Positions 1-50,132 of a DNA stretch of 50,132 nucleotides are shown here, piece after piece. A program made the translations under genes and the position numbers. The stretch lies in IMG/VR virus record IMGVR_UViG_3300025897_000002; one strand, 5' to 3'. How positions within the stretch are numbered: position 1 is the first letter of the stretch; each line of letters opens with the position of its first letter. This DNA comes from a virus. The notes under the pieces were generated by a model. That model was not told where the DNA came from, made no database searches, and saw only the letters and a list, made by a program, of their open reading frames with translations.

Positions 1-99
1 CTAATTGAAACCACGTTGTTCGCGGCCCTTGAGGGGTCCAGCCAATGACCATGACTGACCCGACCGGCACACCCGAAGAGCGCGATTTGGCGTTCTGCG
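1..99. repeat. Window-end duplication: bases 1-99 identical to 50034-50132 (circular-contig overlap or short terminal redundancy); unique length 50,033 bp
   Basis: Both ends read CTAATTGAAACCACGTTGTTCGCGGCCCTTGAGG...GCGATTTGGCGTTCTGCG; ORFs run across the junction. Confidence 0.95.
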
Positions 100-269
100 T
101 GCGGGCGGCAAAACTCCGGTGCAAGATTCGCAACGGGCACCTGTGTTGGGGGCCGGTCTGTAACTGCTTCGACAAGATGACGATGGAGTGTTGGGACATT
201 GCGGCCAAAAATCACGTTCTGTCGTCGCTGCCTGACTATGACCCGATCATTACCGTAAATGGATGGTAG
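45..269 (+). CDS. small Cys-rich early protein (74 aa)
   Basis: ATG overlaps the stop of the upstream gene across the junction (CAATGA, = 50078-50081). Six Cys. The N-terminus MTMTDPTGTPEE carries the ACCGGCACACCCGA junction motif. Confidence 0.6.
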   Translation: MTMTDPTGTPEERDLAFCVRAAKLRCKIRNGHLCWGPVCNCFDKMTMECWDIAAKNHVLSSLPDYDPIITVNGW

Positions 270-280
270 GAGGACAACCG

Positions 281-595
281 ATGACCGGCACAACCGATGA
301 ACTGGTGGAGAGCGTTCAAGATGGGGGCCTATCTGAGTTCCAGAGTAATCATGTCTGTTATTTTAACAATCGCATTGGTTACGATGAGGATTCCGATGAG
401 ATTATCGCGCAGTGCGGGAAGTGCGGGAAGGAAGGCAGAATCAAGTATTTAGCAAAAGATCGAGTTTGTTGGTCAGCTTACCCAGATAGCGGAGGGCATC
501 GTAAGGAGGTGCCGGTTCGCGGGGATTTCTTGAACCAAGAGACCGTAGACGATGGGGACGATGGCCCTTACACAATGGATGAAGCCGATGAGTGA
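281..595 (+). CDS. small early protein with CGKCG zinc-ribbon-like motif (104 aa)
   Basis: AGGAGG at 268-273 then ATG 281. N-terminus MTGTTDELVESV is near-identical to that of the gene at 49328. Confidence 0.7.
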   Translation: MTGTTDELVESVQDGGLSEFQSNHVCYFNNRIGYDEDSDEIIAQCGKCGKEGRIKYLAKDRVCWSAYPDSGGHRKEVPVRGDFLNQETVDDGDDGPYTMDEADE

Positions 596-1112
596 ACTTG
601 CCACCCTGAAAAAAATTCAACGGGCAGTGTGCCGCCACTATGACATCTCATTACCTGTAATGTTGGGAGATCAACGGTCTCGCAACGTAGCGTGGCCTCG
701 TCAATTGGCAATTTGGATGTCGTCAAAGTTAACCAAGTCTTCAATCTCTTCAATTGCCCAGCACTTTAATCGGGATCATACGACCGCCTTGCATGCCAAA
801 AGAGCGGTTAACGAACGCATGAAGGACGTTAATTCTGAAACATTTAGGGATGCTCAAGTCTTGTTGGGCGAATTTGCCAGCTTTCATTCTTACGGATCGT
901 TGAGACTTGTACCTCTTCCGAAAAAAAGCGTTAAAAAGGAGGAGGTCCGCAAGAGAACAGGAAAAAGGAGGCCCGTAGGGCCACTGCATCCGAGGACGGC
1001 GAAGACCACTAGAAGGTGCCTTAGCTGCTCTGGTTTATTTGAGTCTGAGGGCATACACAACAGGCTGTGTGCATCCTGTAAACACGGGATCAACAACTCA
1101 GCGTTTATTTAA
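588..1112 (+). CDS. DnaA domain IV-like DNA-binding protein with basic linker and C-terminal CxxC-N13-CxxC zinc ribbon; candidate replication initiator or iteron binder
   Basis: LKKIQRAVCRHYDISLPVMLGDQRSRNVAWPRQLAIWMSSKLTKSSISSIAQHFNRDHTTALHAKR aligns by eye to DnaA C-terminal domain signatures (SR..VA.PRQ.A, RDHTT.LHA). Start chosen at ATG 588, overlapping the upstream stop (GCCGATGAGTGA). The track ORF starts at 552. Confidence 0.8.
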   Translation: MSELATLKKIQRAVCRHYDISLPVMLGDQRSRNVAWPRQLAIWMSSKLTKSSISSIAQHFNRDHTTALHAKRAVNERMKDVNSETFRDAQVLLGEFASFHSYGSLRLVPLPKKSVKKEEVRKRTGKRRPVGPLHPRTAKTTRRCLSCSGLFESEGIHNRLCASCKHGINNSAFI

Positions 1113-1642
1113 TTCAGGATGAGCGAAAAGCATTGATACCGAGCGAGCCAGAGTGTGTGAAAAGCAATGCGTTGGAGCGAGCCACAATAATGGAAAAGCA
1201 CAAGTCTCGAGCGAGCCAAAAATGAAGAAAAGCACTCAGTCGGAGCGAGCCAGATATGAGGATCAGCAGGGCCTGTGAGCGAGCCACGTAAAGAGAAGCG
1301 CATATTACGAGAGCGAGCCACTTAGAAGGAAAAGCATGGTGCGAGATCGAGCCAAGAAGAGCGAAAAGCATGCATTCTGAACGAGCCATGACGGCGGAAA
1401 AGCAAAAGAACCGAGCGAGTCAAGCCGTCTGAAAAGCATGGTTCATGAGCGAGCCAGAAGACGGGAAAAGCATTGAGTTAGAGTAAGTCAGATCGGTAGA
1501 AAAGCATCTTGAGAGAGCGAGCCATCAGTCGTGAAAAGCACAGAACCGGAACGAGCCATCAGTCGTAAAAAGCAGAGAACCGGAACGAGCCATACGAGGT
1601 GAAAAGCAACAAATCCGAGCGAGTCAGAATATTGAGAAACCC
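1111..1642 (+). repeat. Iteron array: 15 units of a bipartite 34-bp repeat (box A GAGCGAGCCA, 8-nt gap, box B GAAAAGCA, 8-nt gap)
   Basis: Box A starts at 1141, 1175, 1209, 1243, 1277, 1311, 1345, 1379, 1413, 1447, 1481, 1515, 1549, 1583, 1617 (constant 34-bp step). Box B starts 18 nt after each box A. A partial fused unit lies at 1111-1122. Confidence 0.95.
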
Positions 1643-1868
1643 ATATCCAGTTACTCTTAGCGAGATTGTCCAAGAGTACGAGCGAGACTTAGAGGCCCGT
1701 CGCAGACTTTACCCAGAGCTAGTGAAATCTGGTAAACTGAGGCAGGGGGACGCAGACCGAAGGATCGAGATCTTGGAGTACGGTCTTGCCCGAGAGAAAG
1801 CCAATTTGACGGCAATTAGGGCAAGCGATAACCGGCATTTGGAAAACTCAAGGAAGAAAGGAAAGTAA
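1599..1868 (+). CDS. small conserved early protein, paralogous to the 49164..49328 product
   Basis: Shared motif RRRLYPELVKSGKLRQGDADRRIEILEYGLAREKAN vs MRLVVYPKLVTAKKLTQETADRRIFVLQNVLAREEAN. Start uncertain (GTG 1599 or TTG 1632, both inside the last iterons). Confidence 0.6.
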   Translation: MKSNKSERVRILRNPYPVTLSEIVQEYERDLEARRRLYPELVKSGKLRQGDADRRIEILEYGLAREKANLTAIRASDNRHLENSRKKGK

Positions 1869-1870
1869 AC

Positions 1871-2188
1871 ATGACTGACTTATTTGATTATGAGGAAAGT
1901 CTAAGGCTCAAGTACGAGGGCATGGATCGGGCCGAGGCCAAGGCGGCAACTCCTCTTGAGGAGGCACGGGAAATAGCGAGGCGGATTGCCCTGAAGACCC
2001 CTGACCGGTGTGTATCTGCTGATGACGTTGGACGGGAGCTAAAGCGATTGGGATTACCGTCTAGCTTGGGGCCAGCCACTGGGAGTCTCTTCCGAGGTAA
2101 GGAGTGGGAGTTTACCGGGAGGCGGATTAAGTCGAGGCGGACCAGTAACCATGCTAGGGAAATAAAAGTGTGGCGGCTTAACAATTAG
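1871..2188 (+). CDS. hypothetical protein (105 aa)
   Basis: ATG 2 nt after the upstream stop, preceded by GGAAAG; coding-like composition. Confidence 0.65.
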   Translation: MTDLFDYEESLRLKYEGMDRAEAKAATPLEEAREIARRIALKTPDRCVSADDVGRELKRLGLPSSLGPATGSLFRGKEWEFTGRRIKSRRTSNHAREIKVWRLNN

Positions 2189-2226
2189 GACTAAATCCTT
2201 AACAATTTGGCTTGAATTGATATACT
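2177..2226 (+). promoter_or_regulatory. sigma70-like promoter (-35 TTAACA 2199-2204, 16-nt spacer, extended -10 TGATATACT 2218-2226) overlapped by two CTTAACAATT direct repeats
   Basis: 5/6 match at -35, TATACT at -10 with upstream TG. CTTAACAATT at 2177-2186 and 2198-2207, 21 nt apart. Confidence 0.5.
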
Positions 2227-2522
2227 ACGGGACATCTGCTGAGTTAACTTCATCGATACTGAAGCAGCAGAACCCAGCGCCTAATAAAACCCCATGTTGA
2301 CGAATGTTAATGGATGGGGAGCGCCAGACATCCTGTAGACATCTTTAAGACCTGAAGCGCCAAAAAGCGGCGGCTACCCTAAGCAATCCCCCGTGTGCCC
2401 AACCCCGCCCTAGCAACCCCAAACACAACTAAACACCCATAAGAGAGATAGAGAGAGACCAGTCGTATCAATAGGTCGGGAATAGCGAAATCCCCCTCTT
2501 TCTCCCTTTCTCCCCCCAAACA

Positions 2523-2538
2523 TGTTTCACGTGAAACA
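2523..2538. promoter_or_regulatory. perfect 16-bp palindrome TGTTTCACGTGAAACA (candidate dimeric-regulator site)
   Basis: Self-complementary over all 16 nt. Sits between a C-rich block (2386-2517) and the G-rich GTCGGG cluster (2556-2690). Confidence 0.5.
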
Positions 2539-2555
2539 ATAGACACCCTTGCTGA

Positions 2556-2690
2556 CCTAGTCGGGTCGGGAATGGCGGGTTACTGCGGTTGTCGGGGTGG
2601 TCGGGTCTACACTTTTGCCCCCCTGGTGGGACGTGTCGGGGTCGGGGTCGGGTTTTTCAGTCGGGGTCGGGTTGTCGGGGTCGGGTTCTT
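2556..2690 (+). repeat. GTCGGG repeat cluster A (about 12 copies, + strand only), G-quadruplex-prone
   Basis: GTCGGG at 2560, 2565, 2591, 2600, 2635, 2641, 2647, 2660, 2667, 2674, 2680 (plus 2475). Begins TAGTCGGGTCGGG. Confidence 0.9.
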
Positions 2691-2862
2691 GAGACAACCT
2701 TTGGTTGAACAACTGGGCGGGAATGGCCTCTGGGCCGGGGTATATACCCACCTATGGTTGTATTCGTCCAAATCGACGCGATAATTAGGGCAAAAATAGT
2801 TGTTGTTAGTGCATTGCCCGCATGGGATGATCGGGCGTCGTAAATCCTAGGAGGGATTATCA

Positions 2863-3489
2863 ATGGACGTTCACGTATCAACTATGACTGGCAAGCTAGA
2901 AGGCTTTCGGGCGATCAATAGCAACACGCGAAGCAATCCGTTTTGCCTCAAGATGTACGAGAACGCGACGGACAATGTTATCTGTCGCAAGTGCTATTCC
3001 CATGAAATGCTAAAGGCCTACCGGGCAAACACGGTCCCCGCATTGCAGCGTAACAGCGACGCGCTGTCGCAAGCGTGGGATCCCGGCGATCCAGTGCGCC
3101 TTACTGGCAAAGGCCGCAAAACATTCCAGCCTGGCGAATATGTGCGGATTTCCGGGCATGGCGAGATCGTGAATTCGGCCTATGTCGCCAATGTCATGCG
3201 GATCGTCCGCGAGAACCCGCAAGCGCGTTTTTCTTGGTGGACTAAACGCCACCAGCTAATTCGCCAGTATTGCGAAGCGAACGGGAAACCAGAGAATCTC
3301 ATTCTCGTTTATTCTAATCCGATAGTGGATAAGATAATGACTAAACCGCCCGCGTGGTTTGATAAGGCATTTAATAACATTTCGAAACCGCACGAGGACG
3401 AAAACTGTACGGGTCAAAAATGCCGCGATTGCATGGCTTGCTATGATCCTAAGAGTTCAACCGATGTTATTATTGAAAGGGTGAAATAA
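2863..3489 (+). CDS. hypothetical protein, Cys-rich ends (weak resemblance to the phage GP88-like family)
   Basis: AGGAGGG 8 nt upstream of ATG. N-terminal C..x..CRKCY and C-terminal CTGQKCRDCMACY cysteine clusters. Confidence 0.8.
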   Translation: MDVHVSTMTGKLEGFRAINSNTRSNPFCLKMYENATDNVICRKCYSHEMLKAYRANTVPALQRNSDALSQAWDPGDPVRLTGKGRKTFQPGEYVRISGHGEIVNSAYVANVMRIVRENPQARFSWWTKRHQLIRQYCEANGKPENLILVYSNPIVDKIMTKPPAWFDKAFNNISKPHEDENCTGQKCRDCMACYDPKSSTDVIIERVK

Positions 3490-3689
3490 TGGGATATAAG
3501 CCGATGTTTTTATTTAAGGGTGGGGAGCGTAAGGGTAACGCTCAAGTTTTTTCGACAGAAGAAGAAGCGCGTGAAAGTGCGCTTGCCCGGTTTGTGGTTT
3601 GGACAATGCCAGAGGGTATTGACGTTGAGCCAACGGACGATCCGGTAAACTTTCGCCGCATTGACGGGCGCGATGAGTACCTAGAATAG
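3489..3689 (+). CDS. hypothetical protein (66 aa)
   Basis: TAATG overlap with the upstream gene. Its TAG stop is part of the first TAGTCGGG motif. Confidence 0.7.
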   Translation: MGYKPMFLFKGGERKGNAQVFSTEEEARESALARFVVWTMPEGIDVEPTDDPVNFRRIDGRDEYLE

Positions 3690-3846
3690 TCGGGAGCAAA
3701 TAGTCGGGAGTCGGGGCCCCGCTTAGTCGGGGCCTTTTTTTGTCTTGGTAATAGTCGGGGTCGGGTCGGGGTCGGGTCGGGGTCGGAATAGGGTATTTGG
3801 CCGGGCGGGCCGGGCAGGGCGGACGGGCAGGGCGGACGGGAATCGT
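3686..3846 (+). repeat. GTCGGG repeat cluster B (4 x TAGTCGGG, then GGGGTCGGGTC tandem, then 2 x GGGCAGGGCGGACGG), G-quadruplex-prone
   Basis: GTCGGG at 3689, 3703, 3710, 3726, 3754, 3760, 3765, 3771, 3776 (and GTCGGA at 3782). GGGCAGGGCGGACGG occurs twice in 3815-3846. Confidence 0.9.
3715..3741 (+). terminator. rho-independent terminator
   Basis: GGCCCC (3715-3720), loop GCTTAGTC, GGGGCC (3729-3734), then T7 (3735-3741). Confidence 0.7.
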
Positions 3847-3899
3847 CCCCGCTGGAACAAAAGGTGAACATCCCCGTGTTATTTTCTGGGGAATATATG

Positions 3900-3927
3900 T
3901 TGTTTCTCGTGCAGGGAAATATATACT
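3900..3927 (+). promoter_or_regulatory. candidate promoter (TTGTTT, 16-nt spacer, TATACT) upstream of the DUF932-like gene
   Basis: -10 TATACT at 3922-3927 is identical to the -10 of the 2199-2226 promoter. The -35 is weak (3/6). Confidence 0.35.
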
Positions 3928-3967
3928 GGCTTTGGGCAATTTCGCCCGCACATGAAGGGATATCCAA

Positions 3968-4915
3968 ATGAATAACATCGTGAACCTGTCGCCTTGGTCC
4001 GCCCGCGCTACTGAGGTCACCGCTGATCCGGTTCTGGCCCGGTTCCTCGCACCGGTCGAGCGTCGCCAATTGTTTGACGCCGCTGGCAACGAGGCGGCCC
4101 ATGTTGGCCTGTATGATGACGCCAAGTGCGTCGGCGTGGTTTCGCCTACCTATCACGTTCTGCAAAACGCCACCGCGCATGATGTCGTGACGGACGCAAT
4201 ACGGGGATCCGGCTATCACGGTCAGTTAGACGTTAAGCCGGTACAGGGCGGTCGCTTTGGCGGTCGCTGGGGCACTCGCTACATTCTTGCGGACCATGGA
4301 TTCGCAATTCAGCAGCCGGGGAAATACCTCGCAACCCGCGTCGATCTCGAGCTATTCTTGCGGACCTCTTACGACGGCAGCACCGGCACCAGCATCGGCG
4401 TTTCGATGTTTGACCGCTTTTGCGATAACGGCATGGTGTTTCACTCTCAGGTGCAAGCTTTCCGCGCCAAGCACACCCGCTATGCTGAAGACAACCTGTT
4501 CCGCGTCACGCCCCAGCAAGTCGAGGTTGCGCTTGCCGAGGCTCAAGAGCAAGCCGAGATCATCAGGCGATGGGCGGAAACACGGATCACCGCAACGCAA
4601 GCCCGCGAATTGCTCAAAGGCCTCAAGGTCAAAGAGCATAAGGTCGAGGACAAACGGCCCGTGTCCGAGCGCACACCGCGAAACGAGTTAGAATTGCTCA
4701 TGGCCGGGTTCGAGCAAGAAAGCGAAGACCGGGGTCAAACCTTGTGGGCGTTGGTTTCCGCTGTAACGGCATGGTCCACGCCACGCGATAACGTCGCGGA
4801 TATGCCCACCGTCCGCCGGGGCCGGTCGCAGGATAGTCTTTCGCTCGCCGAAGGCCGTCAGGATAGGACGGCGGATTGGGTACTGGTACTGCAAAAGATG
4901 GCCCGCGCCGCGTAG
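3968..4915 (+). CDS. DUF932-like protein (phage/plasmid family of unknown function)
   Basis: VSPTYHVLQN...GGRFG...LRTSYDGSTGTSIGVSMFDRFCDNGMVF matches the DUF932 pattern (Y.v.qN ... NShDGs.a ... R.vC.NGmv). The TAG stop is part of a TAGTCGGG motif. Confidence 0.8.
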   Translation: MNNIVNLSPWSARATEVTADPVLARFLAPVERRQLFDAAGNEAAHVGLYDDAKCVGVVSPTYHVLQNATAHDVVTDAIRGSGYHGQLDVKPVQGGRFGGRWGTRYILADHGFAIQQPGKYLATRVDLELFLRTSYDGSTGTSIGVSMFDRFCDNGMVFHSQVQAFRAKHTRYAEDNLFRVTPQQVEVALAEAQEQAEIIRRWAETRITATQARELLKGLKVKEHKVEDKRPVSERTPRNELELLMAGFEQESEDRGQTLWALVSAVTAWSTPRDNVADMPTVRRGRSQDSLSLAEGRQDRTADWVLVLQKMARAA

Positions 4916-5095
4916 TCGGGTCACATACTGAAAACTGGGCTCGCCTCGTGCGGGCCCTTTTTTTGTGTCGGGTCGGGCTGTCGGGTCGGGATGGGTCGGG
5001 TCGGGCTCGATGCTGTCGGGTCGGGTCGGGTCTGGGGCTCGGTTCCTGGGTCTTGGGTCTTGGGCCCTGGCCCCCGGCCCTTGGTTACTGGGCCC
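4913..5095 (+). repeat. GTCGGG repeat cluster C (about 11 copies) followed by TGGGTCTTGGG/GGCCC repeats
   Basis: GTCGGG at 4915, 4967, 4972, 4980, 4985, 4995, 5000, 5015, 5020, 5025, then TGGGTCTTGGGTCTTGGGCCCTGG. Confidence 0.9.
4937..4964 (+). terminator. rho-independent terminator
   Basis: GGGCTCGC (4937-4944), loop CTCGT, GCGGGCCC (4950-4957, one G-U pair), then T7 (4958-4964). Confidence 0.7.
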
Positions 5096-5227
5096 TCTAT
5101 TTCTTCTTTTCCTGGCCTGATCTGGCCTGATCTGGGTGCACTAAAAGTAGTAGACAGCGCCCGGTCCAGGCATTAAGCTGATCACAGCTTAACCGCATCG
5201 GTTAAGTGGAAACCTTGGAGATAGAAT

Positions 5228-5548
5228 ATGAGCGAAATGATCAAAACGGTGGGCGGCCTTTATACGCCCGAGGAACTGGCCTCTGCACACGCGGAGCGAG
5301 GTGAACGAATTGAAAATCTGGAACGCGACAAGGCGTTCCTCGAGAGGCGCAATGCCGAACTAGAAACGGTCGCCGAAGCTGTTACGACGCTGGTAAATTT
5401 TGCGGCCAAAGGCGAAGACCTCAACGAACTTCGCTCCGATCTCAACGAACTCCGCTCCGATCTTGATGACGTCGAGGACACTAGCTCCAAGCTTGACGAC
5501 GTCGTGCGTGCCATGCGGGATGCCGCCGCAGAGCTTGCATCAGTCTAA
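5228..5548 (+). CDS. very acidic coiled-coil protein (106 aa) with internal 21-bp tandem duplication
   Basis: GGAG 8 nt upstream of the ATG. DLNELRS duplicated (nt 5420-5440 and 5441-5461). Rich in E/D. Confidence 0.75.
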   Translation: MSEMIKTVGGLYTPEELASAHAERGERIENLERDKAFLERRNAELETVAEAVTTLVNFAAKGEDLNELRSDLNELRSDLDDVEDTSSKLDDVVRAMRDAAAELASV

Positions 5549-5590
5549 TCCAAGCCGGGGGCGGGCATGGTACCTGCCCCCTACCACCCC

Positions 5591-5923
5591 ATGAAAGGAA
5601 ACAAGGTGAAAATATTCAAGTTCAAGTTATCCACCCGCATCGGCTCCACCGCCCGCGAGTGGCTGGCCGCAAAGGCCGCAGCATCGCAGGTCCGCCGCGA
5701 CATCGAGGCCATCACCCGCGCCCTGATCGCGGACGCGCCGCGCAACATCCGCGACCGCCTCGCCCAGCTTGAGGCCGAACTCAAGGCGGCAGAAGCAACC
5801 GCGAAGGCATACGAACCTGACCTGCGTGATCTGCCTCACGGCTCCCACGTCGTGCCCGGGCTCGGCTCAGTCGAGCGCGGATATCGCAGCGAATCGGAAA
5901 CGCTGCGGGCGAAGGTGAACTAG
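5591..5923 (+). CDS. hypothetical coiled-coil protein
   Basis: Start is ATG 5591 or GTG 5606. The GTG is favoured by comparison with the paralogous intergenic element at 5924-5988. Confidence 0.65.
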   Translation: MKGNKVKIFKFKLSTRIGSTAREWLAAKAAASQVRRDIEAITRALIADAPRNIRDRLAQLEAELKAAEATAKAYEPDLRDLPHGSHVVPGLGSVERGYRSESETLRAKVN

Positions 5924-5985
5924 AAGCCTAATCAACCGGGGGCTGGCAAGGTGCTGGCCCCCACCAAACCAAGAAGGGAAAAACA

Positions 5986-6114
5986 GTGAACAGTAGAGCC
6001 AGAAGACGACGCAACCGTTTTATATTCAGAGCGATAATGTCGATTTACATTCCATGCGGTGTTTTGGTTTGCTGCTATGGAGTCTGGATTGTGTTCCAAC
6101 AGCTAACCTTCTAA
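5986..6114 (+). CDS. possible 42-aa membrane miniprotein (GTG start), not in the ORF track
   Basis: VNSRARRRRNRFIFRAIMSIYIPCGVLVCCYGVWIVFQQLTF: Arg-rich N-terminus plus one hydrophobic helix. GGGAAAAA RBS-like element in the same relative position as upstream of GTG 5606. Followed by a hairpin and T-run. Confidence 0.35.
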   Translation: MNSRARRRRNRFIFRAIMSIYIPCGVLVCCYGVWIVFQQLTF

Positions 6115-6128
6115 TCCAACCGAGGGGC

Positions 6129-6166
6129 TGGGTCCCTTTGGGGCCTAGCTTTTCTGTCGGGTCGGG
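6129..6166 (+). terminator. weak terminator hairpin plus T-run, immediately followed by GTCGGGTCGGG (cluster D)
   Basis: GGTCCC (6130-6135), TTT, GGGGCC (6139-6144), AGCTTTTCT, then GTCGGG at 6156 and 6161. Confidence 0.4.
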
Positions 6167-13394: not shown

Positions 13395-15796
13395 TGGCTA
13401 TTATTGAAAACGAAGAGACCCCAGAGAACCCTGTAGGGATGGCTGCTGAAGTCCAAGAAGAGGTTCTTCCGGAGGATATGATTTCGGAAGAGAACGAAGA
13501 CGGCAGCATTTCCTTCTTTGTCGAGGAAGAGCCCAAAGAAGAAGACGTTCCCTTCGACGCCAATCTTGCTGAATTTATAGATGAAACTTCTTTAGGTGCT
13601 CTTTCCAATAAACTTATTGGTGATGTGCGCGGAGACTTGGACAGTAGGTCAGATTGGGAAGAGACCTACAAAAGGGGTTTGGAGTCTCTTGGTATTAAAT
13701 ACGAAGACTTTCGAGACTTTCCCTTTGAGGGCGCGAGCAGCGTAACGCACCCCTTGTTGGCTGAGAGCGTCACTCAGTTTCAGGCTCAAGCCTACAAGGA
13801 GCTTCTGCCTTCGGGTGGCCCTGTCCGTACTCAGATTCTTGGGACGACTACTCCGGAAGTAGAGGCTCAGGCAGACCGTGTCGCTGAGTTTATGAACTAT
13901 CAAGTTACGGTAGAGATGAAAGAGTACGATCCAGAAACGGATATGATGCTTTTCTATCTTCCGTTGAGCGGCTCTGCATTTAAGAAGGTCTACTATGACC
14001 GCGCTCTGGACCGCCCGGTCAGCAAGTTCTGCCCCGCTGAAGACATTATTGTTCCCTATGGAACTACGGACATTCAGACGGCACAGAGGATTGCTCAGCG
14101 CATTAGTATGCCGCTGAACGAATTAAAGAAGCTGCAATTTATAGGGTTCTATCGTGACGTTGAGGTTCTTGCCTCCGACAACGTCATTTATGGAAGCTCG
14201 ATCCGCGAACAAGAAGATGAGCTTGAGGGCGTCCACCCAAGTTATAGCGACGAAAACCTTACGGTCTATGAGCTTCACGCATTTATTGATCTTCCTGACT
14301 TTCCTCACCGCGACAACGAGGGTGAGGAGACCGGGATTGCCCTGCCGTATATCGTTACGATAGATGACGGATCGGGGAAAATTCTTAGTATTCGCCGGAA
14401 TTACTACCCAGAAGATCCGTTTACTAAGATAGAATACTTTGTTCACTACAAGTTCTTGCCCGGACTTGGCTTCTACGGATTTGGTTTGCCCCACATGATC
14501 GGTGGGTTAGCCCGTGCCTCAACTAGCATTCTTCGCCAGCTAATAGATGCCGGGACGCTAGCTAATTTGCCCGGAGGGTTTAAGCAACGCGGAGTGCAAC
14601 TCGCGGAAGAAGAGAACCCAATCAGGCCGGGAGAGTTTAGGGATATTGACGCGCCGTCTGGTCTTCGGGATGCAATTATGCCGCTCCCGTTTAAGGAGCC
14701 AAGCCCGACCTTGTTGCAACTTCTTTCCTTGCTGGTTCAAGACGGACGTAGGTTTGTGTCCCTCGCGGACCAAAACCTTAGCGACATGAACAACGAGACC
14801 CCGGTGGGAACCACGGTGGCTTTGATTGAGCGCGGCTCTCGCGTGATGTCTTCTATTCACAAGCGTTGCCATTATGCTCAAAAGCAAGAGTTTATTCTTC
14901 TTGCAGACATTCTAGGTCGATACCTCCCTCCGGAGTACCCTTACAGCTTAGGCAACGTAAATCGCTTGATTAAATCTGCGGACTTTGATGGCCGTGTTGA
15001 TATCATTCCGGTTTCTGATCCTAATATTTTCAGTATGTCTCAGCGGGTTGCGCTAGCCCAGAACCAACTGCAATTGGTTCAAGCTAACCCGCAAGTTCAC
15101 GGCGAGAAGGGTATCTACGAGGCTTATCGTCGAATGTACGAGGCTTTGAATGTAAGAAACATTGAGCAGCTTCTTCCGCCGCCTCCACAACCGCAACCAA
15201 AAGATCCTGCTATTGAAAACAACGACTTCACAAGGGGTCTAATTGGTCAGGCGTTCGAGGGTCAAAATCACGATGCTCACATCAAGGCTCACATGGCCCT
15301 TATGGTCCTCCCGGTAGTTCAGACTAATCCGACCATTGTTGCCAACGTCAATGCACACATCATGCAACACCTTGGTCTAAAGGCTCGTGAGGTCGTGACC
15401 AGCACCATGATGGAGCAAGTGGTTCAGCTTATGCAATCTCAGGGGGGTGTTATCGCTCCTGAGCAACAAGCTGCTCTTGCTAGCGAAATTGAGGATCGTA
15501 TCGCTGAGGTCGTAGCGACAATGACAGAGGGCTTTGCTCAGTCTCAAGAGCCGGAAAATCAGAAAGACCCCTTAGTTGCAATTCGAGAGCAGGAGGTCGC
15601 TTTGGCCGCTCGCAAGTTGCAGCTTGAAGGAGAGAAATTTAAGCAAAAATCCTCCCTTGAAAGTTCTAAAGCTGCCGCTCAAAATATAGTGGACATTGCC
15701 CGTGTTGAGGCTCAAAACAGGGCTATAACTGAGCGAAGCTCAATCGCAAGAGAGCGGATTGCTGCAAATCTAGTCGGCAAAATTGGTCGGCGTTAG
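13394..15796 (+). CDS. portal protein (800 aa)
   Basis: Large protein immediately after terL, acidic N-terminus, size and position typical of podovirus portals. Confidence 0.8.
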   Translation: MAIIENEETPENPVGMAAEVQEEVLPEDMISEENEDGSISFFVEEEPKEEDVPFDANLAEFIDETSLGALSNKLIGDVRGDLDSRSDWEETYKRGLESLGIKYEDFRDFPFEGASSVTHPLLAESVTQFQAQAYKELLPSGGPVRTQILGTTTPEVEAQADRVAEFMNYQVTVEMKEYDPETDMMLFYLPLSGSAFKKVYYDRALDRPVSKFCPAEDIIVPYGTTDIQTAQRIAQRISMPLNELKKLQFIGFYRDVEVLASDNVIYGSSIREQEDELEGVHPSYSDENLTVYELHAFIDLPDFPHRDNEGEETGIALPYIVTIDDGSGKILSIRRNYYPEDPFTKIEYFVHYKFLPGLGFYGFGLPHMIGGLARASTSILRQLIDAGTLANLPGGFKQRGVQLAEEENPIRPGEFRDIDAPSGLRDAIMPLPFKEPSPTLLQLLSLLVQDGRRFVSLADQNLSDMNNETPVGTTVALIERGSRVMSSIHKRCHYAQKQEFILLADILGRYLPPEYPYSLGNVNRLIKSADFDGRVDIIPVSDPNIFSMSQRVALAQNQLQLVQANPQVHGEKGIYEAYRRMYEALNVRNIEQLLPPPPQPQPKDPAIENNDFTRGLIGQAFEGQNHDAHIKAHMALMVLPVVQTNPTIVANVNAHIMQHLGLKAREVVTSTMMEQVVQLMQSQGGVIAPEQQAALASEIEDRIAEVVATMTEGFAQSQEPENQKDPLVAIREQEVALAARKLQLEGEKFKQKSSLESSKAAAQNIVDIARVEAQNRAITERSSIARERIAANLVGKIGRR

Positions 15797-41936: not shown

Positions 41937-42800
41937 ATGGAAGTACACAACAAGCACAATTTGCCTTATCCGTTCGTCAAAGCACTGTCGAGCAACCACC
42001 GACCCTTAGTGGAAAAACGGGTCAGGGTGACATCCCTCATAAAGCCTCCGCGCATGACTGCCCTCGAAAGGCAGAACTGGGACAACATGGAGGTTGATGT
42101 ATCGGAAATGATGCATGCCCTTTTAGGAACAGCATTTCATGGGGTGCTTGAAGACAACTCTGATGGCGATCCGGACATGGAAGCTAAAGAGCTTAGTCTG
42201 GCAGCGGATTACTTTGGCTGGAACCTCACTGGAACGATGGATCACCTGTCGAAGTCCGGGGTGATTACCGACTGGAAGACAACCTCTGTGTGGAGCGCAG
42301 TGTTTGGCAATGATGGTTGGGAGCCTCAGTTGAATCTTTACGCCCAACTTGCCCGCGACAATGGGTATGAGATTAAGGGCCTAAAAATCTTTTCTTACTT
42401 TAGGGATTGGAACGAGCGCCGCTCGCTTGATGGGGGCGACTACCCCGAACATATGTGGGGCAGTTACGACATACCGCTGTGGTCTGAAGAAAAGGCCAAG
42501 CTCTACATTCAAGAGCAGATAACCACGCTGGAGGCGGCGCTTGATGGAGAGGGCGTTCTTTGCAGCGATGAAGACCGATGGGCAACGCCAGACCGTTACG
42601 CAGTAATGAAGCCAGGAGCTAAGAGGGCTACCCGTGTGCTAGACACAGAAGAGGAGGCTAAAGAATACCTTTACACAAAGGTTGGTAAGGGTAAAATAGA
42701 GGTTCGATTTGGCGAAAAGTTTAAGCGATGTGAGCGATACTGCAATGCAAGCGCATTTTGCAAGCAGTATCAGGAAGGTACTGGAAATGAATTTGCTTGA
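41937..42800 (+). CDS. PD-(D/E)XK nuclease, Cas4/RecB-like, with C-terminal Cys cluster (recombination exonuclease)
   Basis: GGAGAGGAAAG RBS; MDHL...ITDWKTT...QLNLYAQL core motifs; C...CERYCNASAFC cluster. Confidence 0.75.
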   Translation: MEVHNKHNLPYPFVKALSSNHRPLVEKRVRVTSLIKPPRMTALERQNWDNMEVDVSEMMHALLGTAFHGVLEDNSDGDPDMEAKELSLAADYFGWNLTGTMDHLSKSGVITDWKTTSVWSAVFGNDGWEPQLNLYAQLARDNGYEIKGLKIFSYFRDWNERRSLDGGDYPEHMWGSYDIPLWSEEKAKLYIQEQITTLEAALDGEGVLCSDEDRWATPDRYAVMKPGAKRATRVLDTEEEAKEYLYTKVGKGKIEVRFGEKFKRCERYCNASAFCKQYQEGTGNEFA

Positions 42801-43446
42801 TTTGAGTGCGCCTTTTGACCCTGACGAAATCGACTGGAGAGTTGGGGCAACCACCAAAGATAAGTCTAAGGGAATTGCGTTAGCGTACATTGACGCCCGC
42901 GCTGTAATGGAGCGTCTTGATAGCGTTTGCGGCCCAGAGAATTGGCAGTGCAAGTACAGCCATGCTGGGGAAAAGACTGTCTGCGAAATCCTTATAAAGT
43001 GCGGCGAGGAATGGGTAGCAAAGTCCAATGGGGCTGGCGATACTGACGTTGAAGGCCCAAAGGGGGCGTTGTCAGATGCCTTCAAGCGGGCTGCTGTCGT
43101 TTGGGGAGTGGGTCGTTATCTCTATTCTTTAGACAGCCCATGGGTCAGACTTGAAGCGAGAGGCAGATCTTACGTCATCGCTAAAGATGAATTGCCACGC
43201 TTGAAGGGGATGCTTGGAGGGCGAGTAAAAACAGACACAAAGACCCCTGCAATTCTCGTTGAGACCATTGTTGGTGATGTAGAGAAAAACCTGAAGTCCT
43301 GCGGGTCTCTCGAAGAGTTAAAGGATGTTTGGGTAAGCTCATCCGTTAACTTGAAGAAAGTAATGGATTTTGACAAAGGTCAGCATGAGGCCCTTGTCAA
43401 AACGAAAGACCAAATGAAAAACGCGCTTACAAAAAAGGAAGTTTAG
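42787..43446 (+). CDS. Rad52-like single-strand annealing protein
   Basis: IALAYIDARAVMERLDSVCGPENWQCKY...SDAFKRAAVVWGVGRYLY; start at ATG 42787 overlapping the upstream gene end. Confidence 0.8.
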   Translation: MNLLDLSAPFDPDEIDWRVGATTKDKSKGIALAYIDARAVMERLDSVCGPENWQCKYSHAGEKTVCEILIKCGEEWVAKSNGAGDTDVEGPKGALSDAFKRAAVVWGVGRYLYSLDSPWVRLEARGRSYVIAKDELPRLKGMLGGRVKTDTKTPAILVETIVGDVEKNLKSCGSLEELKDVWVSSSVNLKKVMDFDKGQHEALVKTKDQMKNALTKKEV

Positions 43447-43447
43447 A

Positions 43448-43873
43448 ATGTCTGGTGTGAATAAAGTAACTCTTCTGGGTAATCTTGGTAAAGACCCGGA
43501 TGTCAGGCAGACGCAAAACGGTGGGTCTGTTGTTAGTTTTTCTGTTGCTACTTCTGAGACATGGAAAGACAAGGCGACTGGAGAGCGAAAGGAAAAGACA
43601 GAGTGGCACCGGGTTGTTAGTTTCAGCAAAGGAATCAATGCCTTCGTTGAAAGCTACGTTAAAAAGGGGTCAAAGGTTTATGTTGAAGGAAAGCTACAAA
43701 CGCGCAAATGGACTGATAAGTCAGGCGTTGAAAAGTACACAACTGAAATTGTTATTCCTGCTTATAACGGAGACCTTCAACTGGTTGACAAAAAGAGCGG
43801 TGAGTCTTTTTCTCCTCCTGAAAAGAAAACTCAGGAAATTACTCCAGACCTTGATGATGAAATCCCGTTTTAG
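43448..43873 (+). CDS. ssb: single-stranded DNA-binding protein
   Basis: NKVTLLGNLGKDPDVR...TEWHRVV...GSKVYVEGKLQTRKW OB-fold signature and acidic tail DLDDEIPF. Confidence 0.95.
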   Translation: MSGVNKVTLLGNLGKDPDVRQTQNGGSVVSFSVATSETWKDKATGERKEKTEWHRVVSFSKGINAFVESYVKKGSKVYVEGKLQTRKWTDKSGVEKYTTEIVIPAYNGDLQLVDKKSGESFSPPEKKTQEITPDLDDEIPF

Positions 43874-45077: not shown

Positions 45078-45267
45078 AGACGCCCTTGATCAAATCGAAA
45101 AAGAAACAGGCGCTCAGCACGCGCCAGAGGACATCCTTCGCGCTTGTGAAGAGTGTGGGTGCGTAGCTTTCTTGGTGACGGGTAGCGGAAAATTACAATG
45201 TGTGCAGTGTGAAAAATACGACGAAAGCACTATGGTTTATTTCATGGGGGACGCTGACGCGAATTAG
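45070..45267 (+). CDS. small CxxC...CxxC zinc-ribbon protein (65 aa)
   Basis: CEECGC...CVQCEKY; ATG 45070 overlaps the upstream stop (ATGATTAA). Confidence 0.65.
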   Translation: MIKDALDQIEKETGAQHAPEDILRACEECGCVAFLVTGSGKLQCVQCEKYDESTMVYFMGDADAN

Positions 45268-45728
45268 TTCAGGTTCTTAGGCTTAAAAACCCCATCGCCC
45301 GTTTCTTCAAGAGCAACAGTTTTTGCGCTAGCAATGTTTTCTATTTCTTGAATGCGTTTGGCAAGTTGCTCTTTGGTAAGCATCTTCACGGGATCTTCTC
45401 TTTGAGAGTTTAGAAGACCGCCCATCTGCGCCCTTAACTTTTCCGCCTGCACTGCCGCAGCGTATTGCCCGTTTTCGATGGCCCCGTTGCGGATGTTAAG
45501 CAGATCTCTCATGCTTCTTTCAGCAGAGATGCCGAACTGAGCAGCAACATCATCTTGCATCTCTATCCGAGCAGCAACGATCTTTGGCTCTTTCAGCAAC
45601 CGGCTTGCAGCTTGTGCGGGTTGGGCAAATCCGGCTCTACGAGCAGCTTCTGTCTGAGAGCAGTTGCCGTACACCAATTCCTGAACAAACTTTCTTTGCC
45701 GCTCGTTTAGCTGATCTTCTTCACTCAT
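45264..45728 (-). CDS. terS: terminase small subunit-like protein (Terminase_2 type HTH)
   Basis: LNERQRKFVQELVYGNCSQTEAARRAGFAQPAQAASRLLKEPKIVAARIE matches the Terminase_2 N-terminal signature; lies about 16.6 kb from terL across the circular junction, on the other strand. Confidence 0.75.
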   Translation of the reverse strand: MSEEDQLNERQRKFVQELVYGNCSQTEAARRAGFAQPAQAASRLLKEPKIVAARIEMQDDVAAQFGISAERSMRDLLNIRNGAIENGQYAAAVQAEKLRAQMGGLLNSQREDPVKMLTKEQLAKRIQEIENIASAKTVALEETGDGVFKPKNLN

Positions 45729-46095: not shown

Positions 46096-46953
46096 ATGGA
46101 ATCCCAGTCTATCGAATCTGACGATCTTGCTCTCGAAAAAGACTTCACCATTGAGAGCGTCAAACGCCTCACTAAAGATCAGCGCGTTGCGTTTCAGTCG
46201 CTTGGTGAGCAAGAGGCACGGTTTCTTGTAGATCAGTATTACACTGTTCAAGACAACCGGATTGCGACCAGTGCTCAAATCCGGTCAATGACAAAAGGGG
46301 GGGAGCCTGTTCACGTTCTCTCCTTGACTCGTGACAATTACGAGCAGCTTGAAAAAAACGCCAAGGTTGGCCTTCAGGTTTACGCTGACAATCATCCTGT
46401 CGGACGGTGGTTGCTGGCTCAGCACGGTATTGGTCCAGTCATTGCTGCGGGGCTTCTTTCACATCTCGACATTAGAAAGGCTCCAACGTACGGACACTTC
46501 TGGTCGTTTGCTGGGATGAACCCCGAGAAGAAATGGGAGAAGGGCAAGAAGCGGCCTTGGAACGCGAAGCTAAAAACGCTGGTCGCGTTCAAGGCTGGCG
46601 AATCTTTCGTGAAGACTCAGGCTCACAAGAAGTCTTTCTACGGCAAGATATTCAGAGAAGAGCGAGATCGGCTTGAAGCAGCCAACGAAAGTATGGAGTT
46701 TAAGGATGTCGCTTTGGATAGGGCTAAGACTGTTGGCAAAACGACTGTAGCTTACTCTCACTACTCAATTGGCAAATTGCCTCCGGCTCATCTTCACGCT
46801 CGTGCTCGTCGTTATGCGGCTAAAATATTTCTTAGTCACTTGCATTATCGTTGGTACGAATGGGAGTACGGCAAAGCACCGGCAGATCCCTACCCCGTTG
46901 CAATCCTCAAGCATGCACACATCATCGAAGCCCCCGGCCCGGAGATATCGTAA
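46096..46953 (+). CDS. IS110-family transposase C-terminal (Transposase_20/HhH) domain-like protein lacking the DEDD/RuvC-like N-domain
   Basis: AGGAGG RBS; GIGPVIAAGLLSHLDI.KAPTYGHFWSFAGMNPEKKWEKGKKRPWNAKLKTLVAFKAGESF parallels IS110 Tnp (PGIGp.tAa.Lla.igd...f...aSyaGL.P....SG.......isk.Gn..LR..L). Confidence 0.6.
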   Translation: MESQSIESDDLALEKDFTIESVKRLTKDQRVAFQSLGEQEARFLVDQYYTVQDNRIATSAQIRSMTKGGEPVHVLSLTRDNYEQLEKNAKVGLQVYADNHPVGRWLLAQHGIGPVIAAGLLSHLDIRKAPTYGHFWSFAGMNPEKKWEKGKKRPWNAKLKTLVAFKAGESFVKTQAHKKSFYGKIFREERDRLEAANESMEFKDVALDRAKTVGKTTVAYSHYSIGKLPPAHLHARARRYAAKIFLSHLHYRWYEWEYGKAPADPYPVAILKHAHIIEAPGPEIS

Positions 46954-49749: not shown

Positions 49750-50081
49750 CCGGCACACCCGATGGCACTGGTGGGGGTAGCGGCATGACCCACGAACAGA
49801 TGGAGCGAGACGCACGCAAAGTGATCTTTGCACAAGGGGTGGGTAATGCCAGGGGTGTTGGAAATCCAGCGATTGAACGGGCCATTCCACAAGCCCGCAA
49901 CGTCCTGTCTCTCTTAGAGGAAGTGGAGCGGATACGGGACGCAGCAACGATATCCGTAACCATTGCCGGTCATGCACGGCGCGCAATCAGTAGCGGGCAA
50001 ATCCACGACAAAGAAGTCGGCAGGAAGGTTGAGCTAATTGAAACCACGTTGTTCGCGGCCCTTGAGGGGTCCAGCCAATGA
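49746..50081 (+). CDS. hypothetical early protein (111 aa)
   Basis: ATGA overlap with the XRE gene stop; MTGTPDG N-terminus with the junction motif; the track ORF starts at 49701. Confidence 0.65.
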   Translation: MTGTPDGTGGGSGMTHEQMERDARKVIFAQGVGNARGVGNPAIERAIPQARNVLSLLEEVERIRDAATISVTIAGHARRAISSGQIHDKEVGRKVELIETTLFAALEGSSQ

Positions 50082-50132
50082 CCATGACTGACCCGACCGG
50101 CACACCCGAAGAGCGCGATTTGGCGTTCTGCG
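50034..50132. repeat. second copy of the window-end duplication (= 1-99); contains a partial duplicate of the CDS starting at 45 (here 50078-50132)
   Basis: Identical to 1-99. Confidence 0.95.

Follow-up and report, generated by a model that had tools for sequence, protein, structure and literature searches.

Architecture of cluster B

The viral DNA studied here, IMG/VR record IMGVR_UViG_3300025897_000002 (50,132 nt, referred to below as the window), contains between two of its genes a compact element, cluster B, in which a stop codon, a predicted terminator hairpin and tandem G-rich repeats of the unit GTCGGG(G) are interwoven. It is one of four such clusters (A-D), which we tentatively read as spacers between gene cassettes. 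The features in and around cluster B are as follows.

3489-3689, + strand: 66-aa gene, an optional cassette that is missing or replaced in some close relatives
3687-3716, + strand: three units 5′ of the terminator, TAGTCGGG, agcaaa, TAGTCGGG, then A + GTCGGGG; nearly invariant in relatives
3713-3741, + strand: putative intrinsic terminator B, a GC-rich hairpin with a TAGTCGGGG unit inside, then T7 at 3735-3741
3752-3786, + strand: main G-tract array, TA(GTCGGGGTCGG)x3, with the repeat core at 3754-3786
3799-3840, + strand: second G-tract array, GGCCGGGCGGGCCGGGC(AGGGCGGACGGGC)n with GGGC-type tracts, fitting the canonical G-quadruplex motif
3854-3871, + strand: conserved box GGAACAAAAGGTGAACAT, present once in the window, between the G-arrays and the next promoter
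3900-3927, + strand: candidate sigma-70-type promoter for the gene at 3968-4915, TTGTTT, 16 nt, TATACT, read by eye

A preliminary description of this DNA had pointed out that the stop codon of the 66-aa gene is at the same time the start of a G-rich repeat, and the TAG at 3687-3689 indeed opens TAGTCGGG (3687-3694). Two more copies had been proposed to follow; TAGTCGGG does recur at 3701, 3724 and 3752, whereas the unit at 3709-3716 is GAGTCGGG. The unit at 3724, counted as the fourth, forms the loop and 3′ arm of the terminator hairpin as had been noted, with GGCCCC(G)/(C)GGGGCC at 3715-3734. A terminator scan gave a stem of nine pairs (hairpin 3713-3736), in agreement with RNA folding, and the hairpin lies 26 nt past the stop codon. 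With its GC-rich hairpin and U-tract after a stop codon, the element is predicted to be of the intrinsic terminator type. A C-to-T change in the 5′ arm in relatives retains the pairing as G-U.

The G-run 3′ of the T-run was also found where it had been described: TAGTCGGGGTCGGGTCGGGGTCGGGTCGGGGTCGG begins at 3752, 10 nt past the T-run, and GTCGGG follows 12 nt past it. Tandem Repeats Finder reports the main array as period 11, 3.0 copies, with 100% matches. Further downstream, GGGCAGGGCGGACGG is present twice, as stated before, inside 3812-3839, and the second array contains 2-6 GGGCGGAC units in relatives. The box GGAACAAAAGGTGAACAT occurs twice in relatives (a 26-nt duplication, in contigs L093-L109, upstream of the DUF932 gene) and also 3′ of cluster A there; it is a possible operator. 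The candidate promoter at 3900-3927 is kept in relatives, lies ~160 nt from the terminator, is not common to the clusters and was unreported by a consensus scan.

Clusters A, C and D and the distribution of GTCGGG in the window

The remaining clusters and the gene that separates B from C are listed below.

2475-2685, + strand: cluster A, 12 GTCGGG units, all spacers unique, within ~670 bp of non-coding DNA
3968-4915, + strand: DUF932 gene, whose stop codon TAG (4913-4915) begins TAGTCGGG
4937-4964, + strand: putative terminator C, GGGCTCGC-ctcgt-GCGGGCCC followed by T7 at 4958-4964
4967-5065, + strand: cluster C arrays, GTCGGG units at 4967-5030, then (GGGTCTT)n; two canonical G-quadruplex motifs
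6122-6166, + strand: cluster D, a reduced form with a 15-pair hairpin (6122-6154), a T-rich tail and GTCGGGTCGGG at 6156-6166 (two units)

The order seen in cluster B had been said to recur at 4913-5030, and it does, with the stop codon in TAGTCGGG, the hairpin at 4937-4957, T7 at 4958-4964 and the GTCGGG run at 4967-5030. Terminator C folds into an 8-pair stem, 22 nt past the stop codon. A minimal form near 6129-6166 was borne out in part: a hairpin followed by GTCGGGTCGGG (6156-6166) is there, and the gene stop, a TAA at 6112-6114, lies outside TAGTCGGG. Cluster A has 14 units in relatives, with 1-2-nt indels, and is preceded by the perfect palindrome ATGTTTCACGTGAAACA and a C-rich tract.

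Several further elements accompany these clusters. Two C-rich tracts with a G4Hunter score of ~-2 lie just 5′ of cluster A, on the same strand (2374-2545), with one canonical C-strand motif, 2388-2410, among them. Close relatives have kept the palindrome ATGTTTCACGTGAAACA and the second of the two tracts. The 630-nt leader in which these elements lie is entered from a consensus-like promoter at 2199-2226, TTAACA-16-TATACT with TG. The gap after cluster C holds more short tandem repeats, (GGGTCTT)n at 5028-5065 and (CTGGCCTGAT)x2.4 at 5112-5135, and the DNA beyond the cluster C arrays differs between the window and its relatives.

GTCGGG is over-represented in the window (45 matches vs 20.75 +/- 4.76 expected; at least 45 in 0/100 shuffles), as is TAGTCGGG (7 matches vs 1.05 expected). 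All 33 copies on the + strand fall in the non-coding clusters, at 2475-2685, 3689-3781, 4915-5030 and 6156-6166. In the 38.6 kb of + strand coding DNA there is none, against 6.6 +/- 2.4 expected from synonymous-codon shuffles (1/1000 as low), while in the same test the reverse complement is at expectation (10 vs 9.7). A strand-specific avoidance of GTCGGG in genes was considered and rejected: the hexamers TCGGTC and AGAGTC behave alike, with 0 in + strand genes vs ~6-7 expected and reverse complements at expectation, and by a Poisson estimate this is about a chance number among 4096 hexamers. The distant contigs described below showed no coding bias, with ~20 isolated units on the array strand vs 27 on the other.

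Conservation and variation in close relatives

A protein-seeded scan retrieved two viral and 20 metagenome contigs with a DUF932 protein 92-98% identical to that of the window. Delaware Bay, San Francisco Bay and salt-marsh metagenomes are the origin of L093-L112. The layout of cluster B is the same in every close relative covering it. Mean pairwise identity is 95.7% across the units and terminator, compared with 87-88% for the flanking genes, and is 94-96% across the units and terminator, the array flanks and the spacer/promoter. Hardly any change is seen in the segment TAGTCGGGAGCAAATAGTCGGGAGTCGGGGCCYCGCTTAGTCGGGGCC, and the array opens always with TAGTCGGGGTCGG. Within the arrays the units stay perfect, and the numbers of units and of GGGCGGAC change by 2, 5, 6 or 11 nt. 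In the main array the unit number shifts in steps that do not come in multiples of three. Indels of 1, 2, 5, 6 or 11 nt indicate that the arrays are non-coding in the window lineage, so coding potential was ruled out for this lineage. Hairpin pairing is retained in clusters B and C, and as sequence variation is small this lends the structures weak support; in terminator C a T/C change swaps G-U and G-C.

Several metagenomic contigs from close relatives start or end at or beside G-arrays (L001, L093, L095, L100, L101, L104), and in L103 long poly-G stretches replace the array. G-arrays break or corrupt short-read assemblies.

Cassette joints on the motif

Differences in gene content between close relatives are placed on the motif, with joints at window positions 3685, 3754 and 4915. 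In L093 and L109, which are without the 66-aa gene, a GP88-like gene runs directly into ATAGTCGGG and homology with the window restarts at 3685. In L102 an unrelated gene cassette stands instead, and homology is regained where the array begins (window 3754). At cluster C, nine relatives carry an extra gene between the DUF932 stop codon and the TCGGG of TAGTCGGG, and this gene ends in the TAG of TAGTCGGG. The motif TAG thereby serves as the stop codon of three different genes.

Three markers span cluster B over ~400 nt: the upstream cassette, a variant just past the array and the DUF932 5′ haplotype. All four pairwise marker combinations occur across cluster B, which indicates recombination or recurrent change within the spacer. 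Array edges are also where homology blocks stop in comparisons of the distant group (L020/L014, L006/L018 and L007/L006). Of the internal block ends, taken over all pairs, 20% are no more than 40 nt away from an array, a zone that makes up 7.6% of the sequence (2.7-fold).

Arrays in the wider clade, strand locking and terminator coupling

The exact cluster B 23-mer was found in 20 IMG/VR contigs, and a (GGGTC)4 probe gave >120 matches. Multi-array contigs, from dozens of more distant phages with a GC content of 40-60%, encode homologues of the window large terminase TerL (~60% aa), portal (~51%) and small terminase TerS (27-35%). Arrays number 3-6 per locus in relatives, and the window has its four clusters within 2.4-6.2 kb. 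The module is found again in distant phages that belong to this TerL clade and have a GC content of 0.44-0.56, e.g. L163, L018 and L144. Two published relatives, 023Pt_psg01 and DSL-LC04, were examined and are free of such arrays. The carriers are a group of uncultivated estuarine and marine phages. No description of these GTCGGG repeats was found in literature searches. The preliminary description had favored a composite module over random simple-sequence expansion, and its retention in 20 close relatives, its recurrence in distant phages of the same clade and its coupling to terminators bear this out.

The orientation of the arrays is fixed. In the first 20 loci the motif is overwhelmingly on one strand per locus; with the second probe, 29/29 multi-array loci carry their arrays on a single strand, and the array strand is the TerL strand in 15/15 contigs showing TerL. 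The genes beside the arrays lie on either strand, with firm Pfam assignments for GP88 in L011 (4400-5185, - strand) and DUF7227 in L006 (7345-8061, - strand). The picture is consistent: cassettes of either orientation alternate with spacers of one fixed orientation.

On the array strand, the usual order is stop codon, hairpin, T-run and array. Across the clade loci, 44/57 distinct same-strand predicted terminators have GTCGGG within 20 nt downstream, and in 15 of those 44 a unit is found upstream of the stem as well, no more than 35 nt away; for opposite-strand terminators, 12/49 abut an array. About 0.6% of random positions abut an array, a figure obtained under an earlier, stricter terminator test than the 44/57 count. 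Counted from the arrays, 25/84 zones come after a terminator of their own strand and 9 border on one of the other strand. Many arrays lie 10-20 nt from the -35 element of sigma-70-type promoters (TTGACA-18-TATTCT) of divergent genes.

The largest GTCGGG zone of distant relatives, just 3′ of terS, falls inside an open reading frame (ORF; L011 3515-4015, L006 6738-7181, and the equivalent in L018). Changes between L011 and L018 in this ORF are of synonymous type, at third positions (IVPCLWSG vs MVPCLWSG), with a 9-nt indel. By eye, a GVPDV...IELK stretch within the first ~95 residues resembles a PD-(D/E)XK-type nuclease motif.

High-GC bacterial genomes, too, have GTCGGG(G) arrays; these are single, reach 28 units and are interspersed with TCGAG, TTCGGG or TCCGG units, and some lie directly after a stop codon. 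The carriers include Myxococcota, Actinomycetota, Planctomycetota and an Aquimonas metagenome-assembled genome (L048, L054, L055, L068, L075, L077, L086 and others). Host assignment via the repeat was abandoned: most matches of the genome scan were single arrays from unrelated high-GC bacteria (Actinomycetota, Myxococcota and others), which was uninformative.

G-quadruplex potential and the sequence of the unit

The genome has six canonical + strand G-quadruplex motifs, all in clusters A-C, and the main array of cluster B has the highest G4Hunter score of the genome (2.32). For the cluster B arrays, folding in ViennaRNA with RNA parameters gave -54.2 kcal/mol with G-quadruplex terms and -30.2 kcal/mol without; with these terms two quadruplexes are predicted in B, two in C and one in A. 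The strand complementary to the arrays is nearly unstructured in the fold.

Other G-tract units, GGGCGGAC and GGGTCTT, are found in the same gaps, which argues that G-tracts matter as such. The GTC before GGG is invariant across periods and GC content, which argues for sequence-specific recognition or continual homogenization by exchange. Two further properties were examined and dropped. An 11-bp helical phasing by alternating 6/5 units vanishes once runs containing the search probe are excluded. A Rho-utilization site on antisense RNA was rejected, since the most G:C-skewed 78-nt windows do not include the arrays, though the C-rich strand is unstructured.

Genome and affiliation of the phage

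Both window ends share 99 bp of exact identity (1-99 and 50034-50132), and these identical terminal bases indicate that the window represents a closed (circular or circularly permuted) complete phage genome of 50,033 bp. Other features of the genome are listed below.

552-1112: protein with a DnaA-type helix-turn-helix
1125-1626, + strand: TIGR array, ~15 units of exactly 34 nt
7173-7319, - strand: TIGR array, 4-5 units of exactly 34 nt
11922-13394, + strand: large terminase TerL
13394-15796, + strand: SU10-type portal
41937-42800: exonuclease, part of the recombination module 41937-43873
42709-43446: Erf, part of the same module
43448-43873: SSB, part of the same module
45264-45728, - strand: small-terminase (TerS) homologue

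The head and tail genes are likewise on the + strand. The nearest published TerL proteins, ~60% identical, are those of phage 023Pt_psg01, the pelagiphages HTVC023P and HTVC027P, and DSL-LC04. Deposited phages gave no DNA match to 2300-6400 in near or distant mode, and Rfam gave nothing above threshold for 1-9000, with a chance-level STnc100 match only. The window proteins scanned include no primase, helicase or DNA polymerase.

The - strand gene at 9406-10467 combines a Fis-type helix-turn-helix (HTH_8) with a metallophosphatase/DNA-repair exonuclease-like domain, and its homologues lie near TerL in L010 and L022. About 15 palindromic hexamers are wholly missing from the window, e.g. AACGTT, ACATGT, ACGCGT, AGTACT, CAGCTG, CGATCG and CGCGCG, and further CGGCCG, CTGCAG, GCCGGC, GTCGAC, GTGCAC and TGGCCA, which suggests restriction-site avoidance.

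The 285-aa protein encoded at 46096-46953 (+ strand) matches the NCBIfam equivalog "TIGR-Tas system RNA-guided endonuclease" with 193.6 bits (cutoff 100, E 4e-57). Each TIGR unit consists of the edge repeat GAGCGAGCCA, an 8-nt spacer, the loop repeat GAAAAGCA and another 8-nt spacer, which fits the published dual-repeat, dual-spacer architecture. Judged by these matches, the phage carries a predicted TIGR-Tas system. The two TIGR arrays, in opposite orientations, flank the GTCGGG cluster region. The GTCGGG arrays themselves were rejected as TIGR arrays, having 5-6-nt units and no fixed-length spacers where TIGR arrays have two alternating repeats of 8-12 nt, spacers of 8-12 nt, box C/D ends and a neighboring tas gene, the true ones being those at 1125-1626 and 7173-7319. 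The TIGR spacers gave no convincing target matches in the window or array loci, and the first 20 array-bearing loci yielded no Tas homologue, so a link between the TIGR-Tas system and the GTCGGG arrays was set aside.

Interpretation and alternative explanations

We favor, tentatively and as a reading that may well prove wrong, the view that cluster B and its counterparts are G-quadruplex-prone spacers between cassettes which act as recombination junctions and as boundaries of transcription units. Cluster B would be one copy of a clade-specific spacer dividing gene cassettes. The accessory (early) region before the large terminase gene would consist of small transcription units separated by non-coding gaps, each gap holding an intrinsic terminator, at least one tandem GTCGGG(G) array and other G3-4 tracts. 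The arrays are long, shared, directly oriented and able to pair in any register, and would thus provide homology patches. Recombination at them, through the phage Erf, exonuclease and SSB or host enzymes, would add, remove or swap cassettes, each of which would retain its own promoter and terminator. The G-rich strand, when single-stranded, is predicted to form G-quadruplexes, and these could stall replication or transcription, thereby starting recombination and insulating neighbors. The reading draws on the anatomy of the gaps, their conservation in close and distant relatives, strand locking, terminator coupling, the breakpoints on the motif and the predicted G-quadruplex potential; from these we infer that recombination may start in the arrays, that G-quadruplexes may form in vivo and that either may be under selection. 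The junction account would explain the position of the arrays outside transcription units, their identity across unrelated DNA, their variable copy number and why joints fall on the motif. It would also account for one orientation throughout with respect to the conserved backbone, because only direct repeats give viable exchange.

Several observations weigh against this reading. The 2.7-fold breakpoint enrichment is modest, inflated by non-independent pairs and set against the whole sequence rather than array-free intergenic DNA; moreover, phage mosaic joints sit at gene borders anyway, and variable repeats tend to break alignments. Direct repeats within a genome also promote deletions, which is a cost. 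The absence of GTCGGG from + strand coding DNA is not foreseen by a spacer model and was not replicated in distant contigs. The terS-adjacent array zone lies inside an ORF, so the motif is not strictly a non-coding spacer and can also be coding. Cluster D has two units only and many arrays are long-spaced, so a G-quadruplex is not always possible, and the G-quadruplexes are predictions made with RNA parameters. Finally, the choice of GTCGGG as the unit is unexplained by this reading; the invariance of GTC at 40-60% GC suggests a sequence-specific reader, and no reader was found.

In another explanation, possible but unlikely, the array is a fail-safe terminator or insulator at the DNA level: GC-rich DNA prone to G-quadruplexes or R-loops past the U-tract would slow or block the polymerase, raise termination and shield the next promoter. 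There are precedents: G-rich pause elements occur 3′ of poly(A) sites, termination at mitochondrial CSBII depends on a G-quadruplex, and DNA 3′ of a terminator can modulate its efficiency. Terminators enter an array within 20 nt far more often on the same strand (44/57) than on the opposite one (12/49), both canonical strong + strand terminators of the window have arrays, the arrays begin 2-12 nt after the T-run, and the predicted G-quadruplex potential is strong. However, ~60% of array zones are without an adjacent predicted terminator, the genomic strand of the arrays is fixed even beside opposite-strand units, where the RNA would be C-rich, and arrays of 100-280 nt far exceed the need of a downstream clamp; the conservation of GTC and the breakpoints on the motif are left unexplained as well. 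A strand fixed despite local transcription, C-rich RNA beside opposite-strand genes and the few zones after terminators also indicate that an RNA G-quadruplex is not the general mechanism. Alternatively, the arrays may be multivalent binding sites for a clade-specific protein reading GTCGGG; this could be TerS, with the arrays as a directional pac region, or else a regulator or roadblock encoded by the phage, or a nucleoid protein of the host. In support, the GTCGGG core does not vary over periods of 5, 6, 9, 11 and 15 nt and 40-60% GC, and isolated units beside terminators are conserved. The fetched array flanks contain a TerS homologue in 12/20 loci, as do those of 18 further loci, and there it always shares the orientation of the arrays; uniform orientation would suit directional packaging. 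Against a pac/TerS link, this adjacency is seen in relatives and not in the window, whose terS (45264-45728) lies on the other strand with several kb between it and the nearest array, and the terS-adjacent array zone of relatives lies in an ORF and is probably coding. A protein reader of any kind appears quite unlikely to us: there is no preferred helical phasing after ascertainment is removed, usual duplex binders would not fit a spacing as tight as 5-6 bp, the gaps also hold other G-tract units, and no candidate reader was found co-occurring with the arrays.

The free variation in copy number and unit length (5, 6 or 11 nt), the similar single GTCGGG arrays in many high-GC bacterial genomes and the frequent breaks of assemblies at arrays would all suit a (nearly) neutral, slippage-prone microsatellite, born near G-rich terminator arms, spread by unequal recombination and tolerated only in non-coding gaps. 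We consider this improbable, because the arrays persist at 40-47% GC and across TerL divergence to ~60% aa, intergenic segments are better conserved than genes, strand locking is strict in every multi-array locus, and isolated, non-tandem units are conserved. Strand locking could instead mark a polar one-strand signal for a translocating enzyme, either a Chi-like array taming host RecBCD/AddAB at concatemer or headful ends, or a replication-related signal. The motif is short, G-rich and asymmetric, and the arrays show the orientation expected of a Chi-type signal, being on one strand in all multi-array loci and co-oriented with TerL in 15/15, hence probably with the packaging direction. This orientation is that of active Chi in lambda relative to cos. 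Breakpoints cluster at the arrays, as recombination hotspots would, and tandem copies would make recognition near-certain. Yet Chi-like motifs are normally genome-wide and not barred from coding DNA, and just one end polarity would be protected, so such a signal seems very doubtful. Its variant as T7-type primase sites (5′-GGGTC-3′) was rejected, as no primase is among the window proteins scanned and isolated units are preceded by non-G bases, not by (G/T)(G/T)GTC. A bolder proposal joins parts of these explanations: the strand-locked (GTCGGG)n would be a dedicated polar DNA signal, a G-quadruplex-triggered or Chi-like hotspot co-oriented with packaging, that programs the exchange of promoter-gene-terminator cassettes between co-infecting phages, functionally like integron attC sites or the stem-loop cassettes discussed below and built from a microsatellite. 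We regard it as speculative and would not expect it to hold.

Comparison with known systems

A close parallel is found in the promoter-early stem-loop (PeSL) cassettes of T4-like myoviruses, which are short, conserved non-coding modules that combine a strong sigma-70-like promoter with an effective stem-loop terminator and form encapsidated mini-circles (Arbiol et al. 2010, PMC2839356; Comeau et al. 2014, PMC4122927). Like the arrays, PeSLs are repeated between small accessory genes, and the indel or replacement joints of close relatives lie inside the element; they have been proposed to drive modular shuffling by homologous recombination (PMC2839356, PMC4122927), as we suggest for the arrays here. 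Unlike PeSLs, the arrays occur in podovirus-type phages with an SU10-like portal and an HTVC023P-related TerL; their shared sequence is a G-tract microsatellite and not a promoter, with no common promoter sequence among clusters A-D; and their copy number is hypervariable with strict single-strand orientation. Given the SU10-type portal and HTVC023P-related TerL, the phage is not T4-like, and the arrays are therefore an analogue of PeSLs rather than a member of that group.

In sequence, the arrays resemble the GGGNATC and GGGGA(C/T)T intergenic repeats of Xanthomonas and Nostoc, which form G-quadruplexes (Rehm et al. 2015, PMC4692102). Both consist of 5-7-nt tandem units with G-tracts, over-represented in non-coding DNA, variable in copy number and predicted to form G-quadruplexes; at least four tracts of three or more G with short loops are present in clusters A-C, whereas cluster D lacks them. 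The resemblance holds for position and make-up, with the exception of the terS-adjacent zone of distant relatives, which lies in an ORF. The arrays differ in their GTCGGG(G) unit, their carriage by a phage clade, the presence of several arrays per few kb on one strand and the tight coupling to intrinsic terminators and cassette joints, and their G-quadruplexes are predicted ones.

A recombinational role for such DNA has bacterial parallels. In Neisseria, a G-quadruplex at pilE, with a small RNA, starts recombination (PMC3547852), and G-runs have been proposed to act for the Borrelia vls cassettes (PMC3585125). There, as here, a strand-specific G-quadruplex-forming sequence (predicted in our case) lies beside recombining cassettes. 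The pilE and vls elements are single and defined and serve bacterial antigenic variation, whereas the phages carry many tandem viral arrays, whose link to recombination comes from sequence comparison.

Short repeats are also familiar from phage packaging: T7 has SRL/SRR heptamer arrays beside its terminal repeats, P1 pac contains clusters of hexamers, and both are tied to concatemer processing and packaging. These share with the arrays 6-7-bp units, one orientation and non-coding phage DNA. The T7 and P1 repeats occupy one or two defined sites per genome, whereas the arrays are found at 4-6 sites between genes.

If the arrays are indeed junctions, they would give a sequence-level handle on the shuffling of accessory genes among abundant environmental phages and would be a natural case of G-quadruplex-prone DNA organizing a viral genome. 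If they help termination or bind a protein instead, they would represent a new regulatory element, in a clade without a cultured array-bearing member. The GTCGGG motif is in addition a simple marker of this clade and accounts for the breaks of assemblies at the arrays.

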